The notes beneath the pieces were generated by a model. That model saw nothing but the letters and a program-made list of their open reading frames with translations. It made no database searches and was not told the origin of the DNA. Positions 8,323 to 26,212 of a stretch of 64,000 nt of DNA are shown here, in pieces. Source of the DNA: Cinqassovirus ah1 (lineage: Duplodnaviria; Heunggongvirae; Uroviricota; Caudoviricetes; Straboviridae); IMG/VR virus record IMGVR_UViG_2974724611_000001, positions 76,650-140,649 of that record; one strand, 5' to 3'. The first letter of the stretch is position 1. The number at the start of each line of letters is the position of its first letter. Both the position numbers and the translations under genes were made by a program.

Positions 8323-8444
8323 TGGCGGAGAAGGTGGGATTCGAACCCACGACCAACAGTTTGATTTTGCAAGGGTTTGCGGTAAAGAATCTTAATCAGA
8401 TTCCGCTTTTTGCGACTACTGCTCTACCACTGAGCTACTTCCCC
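8323..8444 (-). ncRNA. tRNA-bodied RNA with about 50-nt insert replacing the anticodon arm (CCGCAA module)
   Basis: GGGGAAG/CTTCTCC acceptor with GCCA end, canonical D arm GCTCAGTGGTAGAGC and T arm GTGGGTTCGAATCCCAC; 122 nt. Confidence 0.8.
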
Positions 8445-8460
8445 AAATTTTTAACAACAC

Positions 8461-8583
8461 TATGCTGGCGGTCTGGGCCTCGAACCCAGATTACAGGCTT
8501 AACAGGCGAGTATTTATTGCGGAAAACATTCTTATCAGAATGAATTTTACAGTGTCCTACCAATTAGACGAACCGCCAGCATA
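8461..8583 (-). ncRNA. tRNA-bodied RNA with CCGCAA-module insert and Asn-like anticodon loop
   Basis: TGGCGGT/ACCGCCA acceptor, D arm GTCTAATTGGTAGGAC, T arm CTGGGTTCGAGGCCCAG; no encoded CCA. Confidence 0.75.
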
Positions 8584-8589
8584 ATGTTG

Positions 8590-8719
8590 TTTGTTGTAGC
8601 GATACTGGATTCGAACCAGTGACGTTTCTCGATGTGCCCACACTTAACGGAATCGAACCGTTCTCGATACTTCTCTGCGATCAGAGGCGTTCTCCCGCTG
8701 AACTAATCGCGACAACAAA
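8590..8719 (-). ncRNA. tRNA-like RNA with two T arms
   Basis: Val-like 5' half (GCGATTAGTTCAGCGGGAGAAC); T arms AACGGTTCGATTCCGTT and ACTGGTTCGAATCCAGT. Confidence 0.7.
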
Positions 8720-10802: not shown

Positions 10803-12239
10803 TTAGAAATCGATACCGACGTAACGGTCGCTCATGATCTTGTCGAGCATGATTTGCATCGGGTTAAACTCTTTCGCACTCAGGATTGTCTCCATGATTG
10901 CAGGACTAAAACCAGAAACAAGAGCAGTGCCTTGATCATCTTTGGTCACCGGATTGTTAGTCGGGCGCGGGCAAAGATTCCAGAACACCAGTTTCGGCAT
11001 TTCGTAACCAGCGTCGCGGTAAGTCTGACGAATCACCTCAAAGTTGGTAGGCTCACGGTCACGCATACGATAGTAACCACTATAGCCACCATCAGCAACG
11101 TTGAATTCCATGTCAGACAAGACAACCAACATAGTCGGCATATCTTCTTGCGGAACTCGATTGCGTACAGCGCGATCAAGAATGATCTTGAATGCACCAG
11201 CAAAGTTGGTAGAGCCACCCCACGGAGCGCGTCTCAGATGATTCACCATGCTTTGAAGATCGTCGCCTTTCTCTTTGATGTTGTAGAACTCAGGATTATC
11301 ATCGAAGGTAATCACTTCGTTCCGGAACACACCGCGCGAACGTTCGCCGATGTACAGACCCAGAGAAATCGCGATGTCCATAGCAGACAAGCCAGCAACA
11401 GCGGTCGGAGTGCTCATAGAGCCGGAAACGTCAACCATTGCGATTACGTTTTCAGTAGAGCCAGCCATCCAGTCGCGTTGTGCTTTCCACTGTGCATCAG
11501 CAGCAACGGAAGAACCAGTACGCAGGGATTTGATCATGTCATACGGATAAACCGCAGCAGCGTTGATCTTAGCCTCACCCTTTTTCAAGGACTCAAGGTA
11601 AGCAACATAATGCTCATTCGCGTTTTTCAGGAATGCTTTCTGATAACGAGCAGAAGCAACAGACGGCAGTTTATCGAACTCAATACCGTCCCACTGACGA
11701 GCACACATCTTTTGTTCAACGGTGTTCGACATACGGACGATAGTGTGACGATATTCTTTAGCAGTCATTCGCATAGCTTTGGCCAGAATACCGGCTTCTT
11801 TGCCCTTTCGAGGTGCCCACTTTGCAGCAAGACCGTTTTGCTTGGTCATGATTGCATCAACCATGATAGCCACAGCAGCGTCCTGAATCGGAGAATTGAA
11901 CATTGCTACCACGTCTTTGAAGCGACCGATTTCAGGAGTGTTCATCAGAACTACGGTGGCGTCAACAGGGTGACGATGCGCAAGGACTTTCAGCAGGCGG
12001 ATGAATTGTTCACGTTCACCGGCACCACCGCGAATATCGCGAGCCCATTGCAGAATGCGAACAGCCCAGTCAGGAGACTCGGTATAAGCATCAACAAACA
12101 TCTGAGTCAGATCTTTCCCGCGAGAGGAACCAATCTGAGAAAACAGATTCAGACACTTGTCGCCAGTGGTGTAGTTAGTGACAGCACCGTTAGCAGTGCG
12201 GGTTTGAGCTTGTACCATTGCATTCATAAAATTAGACAC
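10803..12239 (-). CDS. Ro60/TROVE-related protein with C-terminal vWA domain (DUF2828 type)
   Basis: GTG start at 12239 after GAGG RBS; WARDIRGGAGER, LAAKWAPRK, TVEQKMC, INAAAVYPYD; vWA MIDAS DVSGSM...T...SDMEF. Confidence 0.85.
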   Translation of the reverse strand: MSNFMNAMVQAQTRTANGAVTNYTTGDKCLNLFSQIGSSRGKDLTQMFVDAYTESPDWAVRILQWARDIRGGAGEREQFIRLLKVLAHRHPVDATVVLMNTPEIGRFKDVVAMFNSPIQDAAVAIMVDAIMTKQNGLAAKWAPRKGKEAGILAKAMRMTAKEYRHTIVRMSNTVEQKMCARQWDGIEFDKLPSVASARYQKAFLKNANEHYVAYLESLKKGEAKINAAAVYPYDMIKSLRTGSSVAADAQWKAQRDWMAGSTENVIAMVDVSGSMSTPTAVAGLSAMDIAISLGLYIGERSRGVFRNEVITFDDNPEFYNIKEKGDDLQSMVNHLRRAPWGGSTNFAGAFKIILDRAVRNRVPQEDMPTMLVVLSDMEFNVADGGYSGYYRMRDREPTNFEVIRQTYRDAGYEMPKLVFWNLCPRPTNNPVTKDDQGTALVSGFSPAIMETILSAKEFNPMQIMLDKIMSDRYVGIDF

Positions 12240-20935: not shown

Positions 20936-21554
20936 TTTTACAACTTTTTATGTGTTTGATCATTCCACCAGTTTTCTTACCGGTTCTACCGCATTTTGGA
21001 CACGATATAATTGGTCTATTATCTGGTGCGTTTTTGACCGACTCTGAAATTTTTCTTCTAGTTTCTTCACTTTTTGGCAAACTGGCAATTTTAGCAAGTT
21101 TCTCGAAGTGAAGTTTAGCATTTTCTGGATCTTTACGAACCCAGCTATTACTTCGTATTTTATTTTTGGATTCTTCCGAATGTCGGAATTTACTAGCCAT
21201 TTCACTTAATATTTTCTTGGTTTCTTCTGTGTGATGTTTACCGTGAAATTTCGAAACAGCTCCAGAGTTTATCCAATCCCACCCGCCTTCTCCACCAATC
21301 TTCAAATTGTATGTATCATCGCGGCCTACAAAATCACTGTCAACAATTTCACGTTCTTTGAGATACATTTCTTCCTTTGTCTGGAATTCGTAAAGTATCT
21401 CCTTTTTGAAGTTATCAATCCCGTATTTGGAAATAGATAGTTTCAAATGTTTACCGGAGCCCATATACCCATCATTTTCATCTGATGTCTTATGTGCGCC
21501 TATGTAGAATTTGCCGTTTATTTTGTTGGTGATTTTATAAATTAAGTATTTCAT
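20922..21554 (-). CDS. GIY-YIG homing endonuclease with NUMOD3 repeats (SegB-like position in the tRNA cluster)
   Basis: LIYKITNKINGKFYIGAH, YNLKIGGEGG, HGKHHTEETKK. Confidence 0.9.
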   Translation of the reverse strand: MKYLIYKITNKINGKFYIGAHKTSDENDGYMGSGKHLKLSISKYGIDNFKKEILYEFQTKEEMYLKEREIVDSDFVGRDDTYNLKIGGEGGWDWINSGAVSKFHGKHHTEETKKILSEMASKFRHSEESKNKIRSNSWVRKDPENAKLHFEKLAKIASLPKSEETRRKISESVKNAPDNRPIISCPKCGRTGKKTGGMIKHIKSCKSECA

Positions 21555-21611
21555 CGGAACTCCAAAAAAGGAATACCGAGCGCCTCACGGCGTGTCATTA
21601 AATCAAAAATT

Positions 21612-21685
21612 TGGTGGAGCACGGGGACTCGAACCCCGGATCTCTGCGTGCAAAGCAGAAGTGTTCCCAATTATACCATGACCCC
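21612..21685 (-). tRNA. tRNA-Ala(TGC)
   Basis: G3.U70, loop TTTGCAC, CCA; 3' acceptor strand one base short (probable sequence error). Confidence 0.85.
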
Positions 21686-21694
21686 AAATTCTAA

Positions 21695-21870
21695 TAGATA
21701 CTCGAAAGTATACATTAGAATAGGCACTTTATGCAAGTACCTACGCAAGTCTTCGGATTCACATACGGGAGTGGTGACTAACCCACGTTACTTTTACCTG
21801 CTGTTCCCTCTCAGCCGCACATCCAACTACCGAAGCAAAGGAGTGCTATCTTTTAATAGTAGATTTGAAG
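21695..21870 (-). ncRNA. Putative multibranch structured RNA
   Basis: Nested pairings GCACT/AGTGC, CTTCGG/CCGAAG, GTGCGG/CCGTAT; no convincing ORF. Confidence 0.45.
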
Positions 21871-21960
21871 TTTTGTATTGGTTGCAGAAGTGAATCCATA
21901 CATTTTCAAAGAGCATTGAACTACTGTCGGGTAAGTTCATTTTTCCTACTAGGTAGAAAC

Positions 21961-22037
21961 TGGCAGTGACGACGGGGCTCGAACCCGCGCTCTCCGACGT
22001 GACAGGCCGGAATTTTAACCAACTAAACTACGTCACT
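21961..22037 (-). tRNA. tRNA-Asp(GTC)
   Basis: Cloverleaf, CCA. Confidence 0.9.
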
Positions 22038-22043
22038 AGAAAC

Positions 22044-22118
22044 TGGTAGCCATGGGCAGGCTTGAACTGCCGACCCCACCCTTATCAGGGGTGTGCTCTA
22101 CCACTGAGCTACATGGCT
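22044..22118 (-). tRNA. tRNA-Ile(GAT)
   Basis: Cloverleaf, CCA. Confidence 0.9.
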
Positions 22119-22123
22119 ATAAA

Positions 22124-22231
22124 CTGGAAGACTTTTAACTGCCACCTGGACTCTTGTGCTAGAGAGTTGAGGAATCGAACCTCACCGTTTTCTTAACAAT
22201 AGAAAATTCGAATGGTTTGCTGAAATCTTCC
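22124..22231 (-). ncRNA. CAGCAA-motif RNA A, circularly permuted tRNA-like (YrlA-like)
   Basis: GGAAGATTT/AAGTCTTCC terminal stem, CAGCAA, anticodon-like hairpin, T arm TGAGGTTCGATTCCTCA, loop-closed stem ACTCT/AGAGT. Confidence 0.7.
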
Positions 22232-22254
22232 GTAGCACGGTAAATTGTTATTTG

Positions 22255-22328
22255 CGGAGGAGACCGGACTCGAACCGGTGACCTGTCGCTTAACAGGCGA
22301 ATGCTCTAACCAACTGAGCTACACCTCC
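22255..22328 (-). tRNA. tRNA-Asn(GTT), CCA not encoded
   Basis: Cloverleaf, loop CTGTTAA. Confidence 0.9.
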
Positions 22329-22356
22329 CAAATAACAACTCTAATCAATAAGAAAC

Positions 22357-22418
22357 GGAATGAACTTTTAGGCTATTTCAATATAATGGCTTTTTAAGTT
22401 GGTTGCTGAACTCATTCC
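22357..22418 (-). ncRNA. CAGCAA-motif RNA B
   Basis: GGAATGAGTT-CAGCAA...AAAAGTTCATTCC; starts just downstream of promoter 22430-22458. Confidence 0.65.
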
Positions 22419-22429
22419 TATCTTTGTTT

Positions 22430-22458
22430 ACTATACACTACTATTTAGTGACTGTAAA
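22430..22458 (-). promoter_or_regulatory. Early promoter with embedded late box
   Basis: TTTACA-17-TATAGT with CTAAATA (22442-22448) in the spacer. Confidence 0.75.
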
Positions 22459-22479
22459 CAAAGCTTCTTAAATTTTTGA

Positions 22480-22534
22480 CAGGCTCACTTTTGTTTTTCA
22501 TCCGCAGAAAAGTTTTGATTGCTGAACGGAGCCT
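22480..22534 (-). ncRNA. CAGCAA-motif RNA C
   Basis: AGGCTCCGTT-CAGCAA...TTTTC-TGCGGAT-GAAAA...AAAAGTGAGCCT. Confidence 0.65.
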
Positions 22535-22541
22535 TATAAAG

Positions 22542-22570
22542 ATTGTATCACGTTTTATCAACGCTGTAAA
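22542..22570 (-). promoter_or_regulatory. Early promoter
   Basis: TTTACA-17-TACAAT, 7 nt upstream of RNA C. Confidence 0.75.
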
Positions 22571-22609
22571 CTATCTTTTATTTATGCTCTACTTTAAGAG
22601 CATGTGATA

Positions 22610-22638
22610 ATGATAGCACAGTGTTTTAATAGAGTAAA
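22610..22638 (-). promoter_or_regulatory. Early promoter
   Basis: TTTACT-17-TATCAT. Confidence 0.7.
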
Positions 22639-22907
22639 CAATCTTTTTCTCGATATCCCACACATTGTTTCATGCTACTGCCGGTTGAGTCCGAAGACCG
22701 AATAAGGGTTCACTTCCACGTTAGGTTTACGGCATACCGAGAAAAAGACAGTCCGCATCACAGTGTTAGCGCAAGGGGTTCCACTGTCACTAAGTTATTT
22801 AGTGTCTACTGTCAACCAGCTAGGTGGGCGCTGGTCCCGTCCATACGAGCATGATGCCACCAATACATGCTCGGAAAGATCTTACGGTTTTTCAAATCTC
22901 GAAATCT

Positions 22908-23132
22908 TTACTTGTCGTAATAATATGGCTTGCATTGACCTTCGAACTTGGTTTGACCACCGAACAATCCAACGCGATTCTCGCCATATGTATCTTGTGC
23001 ATTTTCCTCCGCGACTTTCAGCGCGGCTCTGCATTCTGCTTCGGTGTCGAACTTCTCAATTGTATGGCTATGTGAGCCATAATTGGTACCAAAGTTAACG
23101 AACAACGAAGTAATCAACAAGAACTTAATCAT
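22908..23132 (-). CDS. Small exported protein
   Basis: Hydrophobic N-terminus, two Cys. Confidence 0.55.
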   Translation of the reverse strand: MIKFLLITSLFVNFGTNYGSHSHTIEKFDTEAECRAALKVAEENAQDTYGENRVGLFGGQTKFEGQCKPYYYDK

Positions 23133-26110: not shown

Positions 26111-26212
26111 CCGAGGATACTGGATTCGAACCAGTGACCCACTGCTTCTTCTGTACTCTCGTTGGAAAGCACAGGAGAAGGCAGTTGTTCTATCCCACTG
26201 AACTAATCCCCG
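26111..26212 (-). ncRNA. Val-like tRNA with anticodon loop expanded into a long hairpin
   Basis: Intact acceptor, D and T arms; ACTGC/GCAGT stem encloses 35 nt. Confidence 0.75.

Follow-up and report, generated by a model that had tools for sequence, protein, structure and literature searches.

A permuted tRNA-like RNA among the tRNA genes of a T4-like Aeromonas phage is a likely YrlA-type Y-like RNA and partner of a Ro60-like DUF2828 protein

What kind of RNA is encoded in the 135-nt spacer that separates tRNA-Asn from tRNA-Ile in the tRNA cluster of Cinqassovirus ah1, a T4-like Aeromonas phage near PX29/AsFcp (Straboviridae)? The DNA analysed here, which we refer to as the window, is a stretch of 64,000 nt from this phage (IMG/VR record IMGVR_UViG_2974724611_000001, positions 76,650 to 140,649); its tRNA cluster comprises 23 tRNA genes on the minus strand, and the spacer element lies on the same strand as both of its tRNA neighbours. 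An earlier note, made from the sequence alone, had described this element as a circularly permuted tRNA-like RNA with the architecture of YrlA, a bacterial Y RNA. Ro60 and its Y RNAs form a conserved RNA-surveillance particle, and pairs of this kind are already known in some phages with annotated TROVE proteins (PMC4201824, PMC12135203). On the evidence below, we hold with high confidence that the element is a permuted tRNA-like RNA, and we consider it likely that it is a YrlA-type Y-like RNA whose partner is a Ro60-like ring protein with a DUF2828 domain encoded by the same phage, a judgement that applies to the whole statement, partner included.

Structure and conservation of the spacer RNA

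Read 5' to 3' on the minus strand, the element consists of a terminal stem formed by its two ends, a single-stranded CAGCAA motif, a variable-arm-like (V) hairpin, a T arm with a canonical T loop, a loop-closed acceptor-like stem, a miniature D hairpin and an A-rich joining strand (Table 1). Every part that the earlier note had listed, from the 9-bp terminal stem and CAGCAA through the hairpin, T arm and loop-closed stem to the GG segment, is present on this strand; as to its span of 22124-22231, the structured unit occupies 22126-22231, and positions 22124-22125 fall outside the stem. The D-like arm, which it had called weak, is indeed only a 2-bp hairpin (CC-AGGU-GG), and relatives in the same frame carry canonical D arms. 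The permuted order of T arm, closed acceptor and D-like segment, given there for YrlA, is the order described by Chen et al. (2014).

No open reading frame (ORF) on the same strand spans the element. Neither ARAGORN nor Rfam at gathering thresholds calls it, and Rfam searched at E ≤ 10 over 21900-22450 gives it no YrlA, Y RNA or tRNA match; what Rfam does return is an 11-nt scrap of T loop assigned to tmRNA, together with chance matches such as SpF41, all of which we set aside. The element departs from tRNA, as defined by RF00005 and ARAGORN, in its permuted order and in that its only 7-nt hairpin loop is not conserved.

The spacer RNA is kept in five Aeromonas phage lineages (PX29, Aeh1, avDM12, phiWae14 and phiAS5), and distant copies are found in KVP40-like Vibrio phages and in Yersinia/Serratia/Erwinia-type jumbo phages, where the sequences of the helices are entirely different and the layout and CAGCAAAC are unchanged. 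Parsing 12 copies from Aeromonas, Vibrio and Yersinia/Serratia phages with fixed anchors revealed that the outer 7 bp of the terminal stem are paired in 84 of 84 cells, as compared to 27-48 in slid registers, and that the T arm is paired in 57 of 60 (29-41 in slid registers); the closed stem, with a loop length picked for each sequence so as to maximise pairing, is paired in 60 of 60 (19-24 in slid registers). Across the helices, most positions show two to four standard pair types: two or three at 6 of the 7 terminal-stem positions, and two to four at 4 of the 5 positions of the closed stem. The T arm changes from GAGG/CCUC to AGGG/CCCU, GGGG/CCCC and GCGG/CCGC; the closed stem has wholly different sequences in Vibrio phages (UCAGUG/CACUGG) and jumbo phages (ACAUCC/GGAUGU); the V stem occurs as UUUUUC/GAAAAA or UUCUU/AAGAA, around a loop of 6-8 nt and variable sequence; and the miniature D hairpin, 2-3 bp long, varies from CC/GG to GUC/GAC, GUC/GGC and GC/GC around a loop (UGGAC or AGGU) in which GG is always present. 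CAGCAA itself is invariant in 12 of 12 copies. Because the V loop differs among copies in both sequence and length, the V hairpin is not an anticodon loop. The earlier note had also raised the possibility that the region is a degraded tRNA spacer that is not conserved, which this conservation across phages and these compensatory changes contradict.

The surroundings of the RNA are different in phiAS5 (L005 495-580, 601-705). There, a protein gene follows the handle RNA where tRNA-Ile would stand, so that the RNA is retained while its neighbours differ, and the upstream tRNA-Asn has an extra hairpin in its variable region.

Folded as a single sequence, the element is more stable than expected (z = -2.9), and its minimum-free-energy (MFE) structure contains the terminal and closed stems and lacks the T arm and V hairpin. 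We dropped the MFE alternative as the native fold, its helix lying in a stretch that is not conserved in relatives. A pairing between AAAC (after CAGC) and the GUU of the 3' joining strand was also rejected; it fits the window, PX29 and Aeh1, and does not fit avDM12 or the relative L031.

A family of handle RNAs and its relation to YrlA

A scan of IMG/VR with a pattern made of two invariant motifs returned more than 100 loci, including 78 distinct candidates, some of them chance matches, that lie within a perfect stem of at least 7 bp. About two dozen of the 78 are canonical permuted tRNAs with closed acceptors of mostly 7 bp; in these, the first strand of the stem and (U)UA-CAGCAA(AC) are followed by the V hairpin, the T arm and the loop-closed acceptor, then by UA and a full D arm (for example UA-GCUC-AAUUGGUA-GAGC), and finally by the A-rich strand and the second strand of the stem. 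RNAalifold, run on a plain, unfitted MAFFT alignment of 25 members, recovered the terminal stem and the stems of the T and D arms, and 13 of their 16 pairs show double compensatory changes. An 18-member alignment has 94.7% of its cells paired, as compared to 70% in shuffles and 33-45% in slid registers, and a covariation of 0.71 versus 0.25; 0 of 500 shuffles reach 0.71.

MAFFT was unable to register the V and acceptor hairpins, and the automatic RNAalifold consensus for a covariance model dropped the D stem; the covariance model used here, R2, was given a hand-checked structure, and its seeds are IMG/VR relatives, with no Aeromonas or Vibrio sequence among them. The match of R2 spans the whole element (22125-22232, 34.4 bits, E ~4e-5) and skips most of the D-stem positions. 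The element is therefore a family member, whose weak D arm appears to be a reduced form of the canonical one.

Some relatives depart from the common form. L085 (414-530, minus strand) and L063 (1034-1150, minus strand) carry a full anticodon stem-loop after the D arm, with anticodons CCA and UCA (ACGGC-UUCCAAG-GCCGU and a UUUCAAG variant), and their handle, the end structure that frames the RNA, stands where the variable region would be in a permuted tRNA that is complete in all other respects. In L071, L115, L082, L028, L076, L014 and L099, the loop that closes a 7-8-bp acceptor starts with a discriminator followed by CCA, which suggests, by analogy with YrlA of M. smegmatis, that RNase P and 3'-end processing could open these relatives into two-piece molecules. 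Very frequent in sample 3300045988 (L009, L011, L019, L021, L024 and many more) is a 90-nt form, CAUAAU-CAGCAAAC ... GGUUCGAUUCC ... GUUAUG, which has a frame of only 6 bp and no clear closed acceptor or D arm, and which lies ~450-570 nt from a second CAGCAA/T-arm element on contigs of 43-86 kb.

The handle consists of the terminal stem, UA-CAGCAA and the A-rich strand, and it is common to at least four other RNAs of the window. We defined a handle RNA operationally as a framing stem, C(A/C)GCAA within 0-4 nt of it, and an A-rich strand before the 3' strand, and the element has this layout (GGAAGAUUU-CAGCAAAC ... GUUAA-AAGUCUUCC). The consensus of 64 handle RNAs adjacent to DUF2828 genes reads U (0.86), A (0.64), C, A (0.81), G, C, A, A, then A-rich, the 3' strand and G (0.62), with ~50% A at -5 to -1 although no A requirement was imposed. 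A genome scan that asks for nothing more than a 7-bp stem and C[AC]GCAA is not selective enough, with 94 matches versus 42-73 in shuffles, and it was used only in combination with positional or A-rich criteria.

YrlA, as described by Chen et al. (2014; PMC4201824), has a stem formed by its ends, a 5' motif GNCGAAN0-1G that is the putative Rsr contact, and V, T, closed 'acceptor' and D arms; YrlA of M. smegmatis is cut by RNase P and receives CCA, and YrlA RNAs without a 7-bp stem escape cleavage. The element and its permuted relatives share a number of features with YrlA/Ro60-Rsr systems (RF02553; PMC4201824; phiLo Ro60-Yrl, PMC12135203): firstly, an end stem with a conserved single-stranded motif on its 5' side; secondly, the interior order of V arm, T arm, loop-closed acceptor and D arm, the last of these only a weak, putative hairpin in the window copy; thirdly, a genome that encodes a ring protein with the Ro60 fold and vWA/MIDAS, the RNA genes often lying beside its gene on the same strand. 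By contrast, the motif here is (U)UA-CAGCAA(AC) rather than GNCGAAN0-1G or CGAA; the protein is a DUF2828+DUF7788 protein without a TROVE match, and the RNA lies in a tRNA cluster 10 kb from its gene; and one handle is found here on permuted, normal-order and minimal bodies alike. The UUCGAA at 22212-22207 lacks conservation in Aeh1, avDM12 and phiWae14.

The search against Rfam YrlA and Y RNA models that the earlier note had proposed gave a divided answer: the element itself has no match at E ≤ 10, and two of its relatives align full length below threshold. RF02553 aligns over its positions 1-114 to L012 (37.9 bits, E 8.6e-5, or 3.5e-7 on a short stretch) and to L031 (31.3 bits, E 0.007), and both alignments run across the V/T/acceptor/D core. 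The claim of a YrlA-like architecture is supported by the order of the parts, the full D arms of relatives, these alignments and the presence of a Ro60-fold protein in the genome. Together, these comparisons support the view that the element is built like a YrlA-type Y RNA, and would work like one, yet stands outside the curated YrlA family.

A second likeness is to the Dictyostelium Class I RNAs (RF01414; Kjellin et al., 2021; PMC7919456), which are 42-65 nt long, lack any tRNA-like body and have been reported from dictyostelids alone. There they are described, like the handle RNAs, with a short end stem followed by the motif CUUACAGCAAU on the 5' side and with an A-rich stretch before the 3' strand. 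The features that mark Class I are a 6-bp terminal stem, the 11-nt motif CUUACAGCAAU and, in the RF01414 model, an end formed by the stem and UG. One minimal handle RNA from a phage (L031 2524-2579) gives a full-length alignment with RF01414 that stays below the gathering threshold of 41.5 (34.5 bits, E 2.5e-5). The 106-nt element has no RF01414 match and has the CAGCAA core and the position of the stem in common with Class I; in three arrays next to DUF2828 genes (L188, L183 and L197; 64 kb), Rfam revealed no Class I RNA at E ≤ 0.1.

The Ro60-like protein and its genomic coupling to handle RNAs

The candidate partner is a 478-aa protein of the same phage (Table 1). Its AlphaFold (AF2) model (predicted local distance difference test score, pLDDT, 87; predicted template-modelling score, pTM, 0.87) matches Ro60 at all of Foldseek ranks 1-13, among them the Xenopus and human proteins, Deinococcus Rsr and that of Thermus phage phiLo, over the full length and with E from 3e-9 to 5e-6. 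Comparison with 1yvp by VIA aligned residues 9-458 of the model with Ro60 residues 12-537 (Z 23.0, root-mean-square deviation 3.8 Å, 407 residues), and the best non-Ro matches are vWA domains only, with Z ≤ 9.8. Thus, the model has the Ro60 fold. Identity to solved Ro60 structures is 12-17%, and the MIDAS residues are invariant across the protein family.

Of 50,697 reference phage records, 702 (~1.4%) contain homologues, and some of these proteins are annotated as 'Ro-like RNA binding protein'. A single-sequence search with the protein found nothing, and matches in the ESM Atlas are limited to viral DUF2828 clusters, which is uninformative on eukaryotes. The gene and the RNA region show a mosaic history: the protein is nearest to that of avDM12 (98%), then Aeh1 (96%) and PX29 (93%), and in the region 21600-22700 this ranking is reversed, with DNA identities of 92% to PX29, 88% to Aeh1 and 84% to avDM12.

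The RNA and the protein occur together. DUF2828 was found in 18 of 24 viral records positive for the RNA pattern. When five of the six negatives were re-tested, four proved to carry the family-specific vWA half in an ORF of 560-595 aa, which brings the records with DUF2828 or DUF7788 to 22 of 24; TROVE was found in none of the re-tested records, and the remaining two RNA-positive records without the protein are doubtful RNA calls. Among 16 control records, whose pattern match is an ordinary unframed tRNA, none has the protein (22/24 versus 0/16; Fisher's p ~5e-9, for records that are not independent).

Around 80 DUF2828-centred loci, we counted 30 same-strand handle matches in the kb upstream of the gene and 37 in the kb downstream, as compared to 1-10 per kb elsewhere and 0-1 on the opposite strand beside the gene, and tandem arrays of 3-5 handle RNAs are common at these loci. 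In Aeromonas phages, the spacer RNA and a close orthologue of the DUF2828 protein are found in the same 11 records and in no others, and T4 has neither a DUF2828 gene nor a full-length handle RNA by R2. These data couple the genes for handle RNAs and for the DUF2828 protein.

The sibling handle RNAs of the window include both minimal and normal-order tRNA-like forms (Table 1). In the RNA at 8323-8444, a closed handle, AAAAAGC-hairpin-UUUA-CCGCAAAC (closed-form handle at 8377-8404), takes the place of the anticodon arm. Its acceptor has a G3.U70 pair and discriminator G, and CCA is encoded; judging from its sequence, this RNA could in principle be processed and charged, in which it differs from the closed permuted copy. 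Rfam tRNA matches of 115-117 nt and 47-49 bits near DUF2828 genes in other phages (L188 1657-1772 and 6946-7062; L183 9594-9708) resemble it and probably represent additional tRNA-like RNAs of normal order that carry a handle as an insertion.

Two further tRNA-like RNAs on the minus strand of the window are without a handle. The one at 26111-26212 (Rfam tRNA, 53.7 bits; no ARAGORN call) has normal acceptor, D and T arms, and its anticodon region of ~35 nt is a long near-perfect hairpin, CUUCUCCUGU...ACAGAAGAAG, without CAGCAA. The other, at ~8595-8715, is unannotated and lies immediately upstream of the normal-order handle RNA pair. Its D arm is followed by a stem that closes a 4-nt loop in the place of the anticodon arm, by an extra T-arm-like hairpin (AACGG-UUCGAUU-CCGUU) in the variable region and then by a second T arm; it is called neither by ARAGORN nor by Rfam at gathering thresholds.

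Table 1. The spacer RNA, its parts and related features of the window
Feature	Position	Strand	Description	Basis or remark
Whole RNA element	22126-22231	minus	106 nt; permuted tRNA-like body within a CAGCAA handle	Sequence and conservation in related phages
Terminal stem, 5' strand	22223-22231	minus	GGAAGAUUU; pairs with 22134-22126	9 bp, one G.U
Terminal stem, 3' strand	22126-22134	minus	AAGUCUUCC	Compensatory changes in avDM12, phiWae14, Aeh1, Vibrio and jumbo phages
Handle motif	22215-22222	minus	CAGCAAAC	Directly after the 5' strand of the terminal stem
V hairpin	22188-22206	minus	UUUUCU-AUUGUUA-AGAAAA, variable-arm-like	Stem kept, with changes
T arm	22168-22184	minus	UGAGG-UUCGAUU-CCUCA, canonical T loop	Sequence and pairing in 12 copies
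Loop-closed acceptor-like stem	22150-22167	minus	ACUCU-CUAGCACA-AGAGU	Abuts the T arm (spacer of 0)
Miniature D hairpin	22142-22149	minus	CC-AGGU-GG; putative reduced D arm, GG in loop	2-bp stem weak, pairing inferred
A-rich joining strand	22135-22141	minus	CAGUUAA; 3' half of the handle	Precedes the 3' strand of the terminal stem
tRNA-Asn, upstream neighbour	22254-22328	minus	22 nt before the element	ARAGORN and Rfam
tRNA-Ile, downstream neighbour	22044-22118	minus	7 nt after the element	ARAGORN and Rfam
Three sigma-70-like promoter matches	22638-22610, 22570-22542, 22458-22430	minus	Upstream of the element	Consensus scan
Sibling minimal handle RNA	22357-22418	minus	Stem, CAGCAA, short interior, AAAAG, stem; 10-bp frame	R2, 20.3 bits; promoter-like site just upstream
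Sibling minimal handle RNA	22481-22534	minus	AGGCUC ... CAGCAA ... AAAAGU GAGCCU; 6-bp stem	Read from sequence; promoter-like site 22570-22542 just upstream
Sibling normal-order tRNA-like RNA	8323-8444	minus	Acceptor, D arm, T arm, encoded CCA	Rfam tRNA, 54.3 bits, with long insertion
Sibling normal-order tRNA-like RNA	8461-8583	minus	Closed handle AAAAUU-CAUUC-loop-GAAUG-UUUU-CCGCAA between D and T arms	5-bp handle stem, by eye only
Gene for Ro60-like protein	10806-12239	minus	478 aa; DUF2828 and DUF7788/vWA; candidate partner of handle RNAs	Pfam, AF2, Foldseek, VIA

Mechanism, rival explanations and meaning

For the expression, processing, binding and biological role of the element, we infer the following course. 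The RNA would be transcribed together with the neighbouring small RNAs and tRNAs from the promoter-like sites between 22638 and 22430 (three matches versus 2.2 expected in the consensus scan, which is statistically weak), with no terminator following; none was found on the minus strand in 21500-23000. It would then be excised by tRNA-processing enzymes, and an RNase P cut at the 5' end of tRNA-Ile would leave it with a 7-nt trailer. Contact between the T loop and GG would fold it into a tRNA-like L shape, the handle would bind the Ro60-like ring much as Y RNAs bind Ro60, and the tRNA-like body may act as an adaptor or decoy toward factors that recognise tRNA, such as nucleases and repair or modification enzymes. 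Since the acceptor of the window copy is closed, measures no more than 5 bp and lacks CCA, this copy should stay in one piece and uncharged.

A number of observations weigh against the reading of the element as a YrlA-type Y-like RNA with a DUF2828 partner. As regards the RNA, the energy model favours another interior fold (MFE -26.6 versus -20.4 kcal/mol, with a T-arm probability of 0.19) and, taken alone, disfavours the T arm and V hairpin of the window copy; the D arm of this copy is that short hairpin of two pairs; the element lacks an Rfam YrlA or Y RNA match, and its relatives reach 31-38 bits as compared to a gathering threshold of 69; and its 5' motif is CAGCAAAC, not the GNCGAAN0-1G of the Rsr site. 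On the side of the protein, Pfam gives it no TROVE match, and a profile search against the PDB ranks TROVE proteins at the top with E of 0.35-1, which is not significant. The coupling has its own weaknesses: in the window phage 10 kb separate the RNA from the protein gene, to which handle RNAs are adjacent in many other phages, and the records that show co-occurrence are not phylogenetically independent, RNA and protein both being enriched in large tRNA-rich phages. Mere co-enrichment is argued against by the finding that handle RNAs adjoin the gene on the same strand. To our knowledge, the tRNA-like domain has no established role even in bona fide YrlA.

The alternative that survives best, which we nevertheless regard as unlikely, is that the element is a tRNA-derived stable RNA, or a processing element serving the tRNA cluster, which functions independently of a Ro60-like protein and whose link to DUF2828 is indirect. 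It could be tRNA-like 'punctuation' that directs RNase P or RNase E to cut the polycistronic precursor, or a free decoy for host enzymes binding or cleaving tRNA. This alternative fits the place of the RNA, squeezed on the same strand between tRNA-Asn (22 nt) and tRNA-Ile (7 nt) with no terminator, and the distance of 10 kb to the protein gene in this phage, and it has a precedent in the T4 tRNA cluster, which likewise holds small stable non-tRNA RNAs, rnaC (species 1) and rnaD (species 2). The handle, however, is also borne by RNAs that have no tRNA-like body and apparently their own promoters, and in other phages arrays of handle RNAs stand directly beside the protein gene on its strand; the co-occurrence of 22/24 versus 0/16 points the same way, and an invariant single-stranded CAGCAA would be needless for a mere processing signal. 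On inspection, rnaC and rnaD show no sequence or handle similarity to the element, and the only R2 match in T4 is a handle-less junction of tRNA-Thr and tRNA-Ile. By eye, the 3' part of rnaC (L007 1409-1547, minus strand) terminates with a T arm (CCGGG-UUCGAAU-CCCGG) and the stretch CGUUUCG, for which CGGAACG further upstream is a possible partner in an acceptor-like stem; this would make it a normal-order tRNA-like 3' domain without a handle.

Slightly less probable still is that the handle is read by another host or phage protein (an RRM, La-like or Hfq-type protein, or an RNA ligase or repair enzyme), DUF2828 having a different ligand. The motif of the handle is unlike those contacted by Ro60/Rsr, and the sole partner named for the Dictyostelium Class I RNAs, in the portion of PMC7919456 drawn on here, is the RRM protein Rnp1A. 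Against this stand the same-strand adjacency to the DUF2828 gene and the near-perfect co-occurrence, as well as the fact that, wherever the Ro60 fold has been studied, one phage included (PMC12135203), it serves as a dedicated binder of Y RNA.

We give very little credence to a true permuted tRNA gene, in which RNase P would open the closing loop, and 3' trimming and CCA addition would yield a chargeable tRNA in two pieces or re-ligated. Circularly permuted tRNA genes, as in Cyanidioschyzon merolae, and two-piece or permuted tmRNA mature to a chargeable RNA with an open acceptor. The element resembles them in its rotated gene order, with the T arm and the 3' strand of the acceptor ahead of the acceptor 5' strand and the D arm, and among its relatives some combine a 7-bp acceptor with a loop that starts with discriminator and CCA and two keep an anticodon arm; M. 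smegmatis YrlA, moreover, is cleaved by RNase P and gets CCA (PMC4201824). The window copy differs in its closed 5-bp acceptor, the lack of CCA in the loop and of an anticodon stem-loop, and its 2-bp D stem, and YrlA RNAs without a 7-bp stem are not cut (PMC4201824). Equally improbable is a functionless remnant of a decayed tRNA gene or spacer, which would suit the location in a tRNA cluster, the T arm without an anticodon arm, the rudimentary D arm and the missing ARAGORN and Rfam calls, but not a retention across phage genera with diverged flanks, compensatory changes in four helices, an invariant motif and membership in a large family with the same frame.

The reading of the element as a Y-like RNA with a DUF2828 partner leads to a broader proposal, which we advance tentatively and judge to fall a little short of probable: that CAGCAA-handle RNAs are the true partners of the DUF2828 ring and form with it a separate, widespread branch of Ro60/Y-RNA systems, in which one handle carries interchangeable tRNA-like cargoes, and that the handle would explain the dictyostelid Class I RNAs as Y-type. 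This branch would extend over ~700 reference phage genomes (T4-like, FelixO1-like, Listeria, Staphylococcus, Campylobacter and Mycobacterium phages), and its cargoes would comprise closed permuted bodies, normal-order bodies with CCA and bare hairpins. In Rfam and the papers searched, we found no description of CAGCAA-handle RNAs, of their tRNA-like forms in T4-type phages or of DUF2828 as their partner.

The reason why bacterial Y RNAs mimic tRNA is still being sought, and phage examples have so far come from genomes with an annotated TROVE protein. If the proposal is true, a far larger set of phages (T4-type, FelixO1-type, and Listeria and Staphylococcus myoviruses) would carry a divergent Ro60-like ring, together with families of partner RNAs whose tRNA-like bodies come in several topologies. 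They would offer a genetically tractable phage-host system in which to study the role of the tRNA mimic, for example in shielding or repairing phage tRNAs or in diverting host tRNA-directed nucleases or PNPase. A function would be suggested for the large DUF2828 family of 'hypothetical' or 'RNA-binding' phage proteins, and a candidate protein partner for the unexplained Class I RNAs of Dictyostelium. The spacers of phage tRNA clusters can conceal structured RNA genes that tRNA finders and Rfam overlook.

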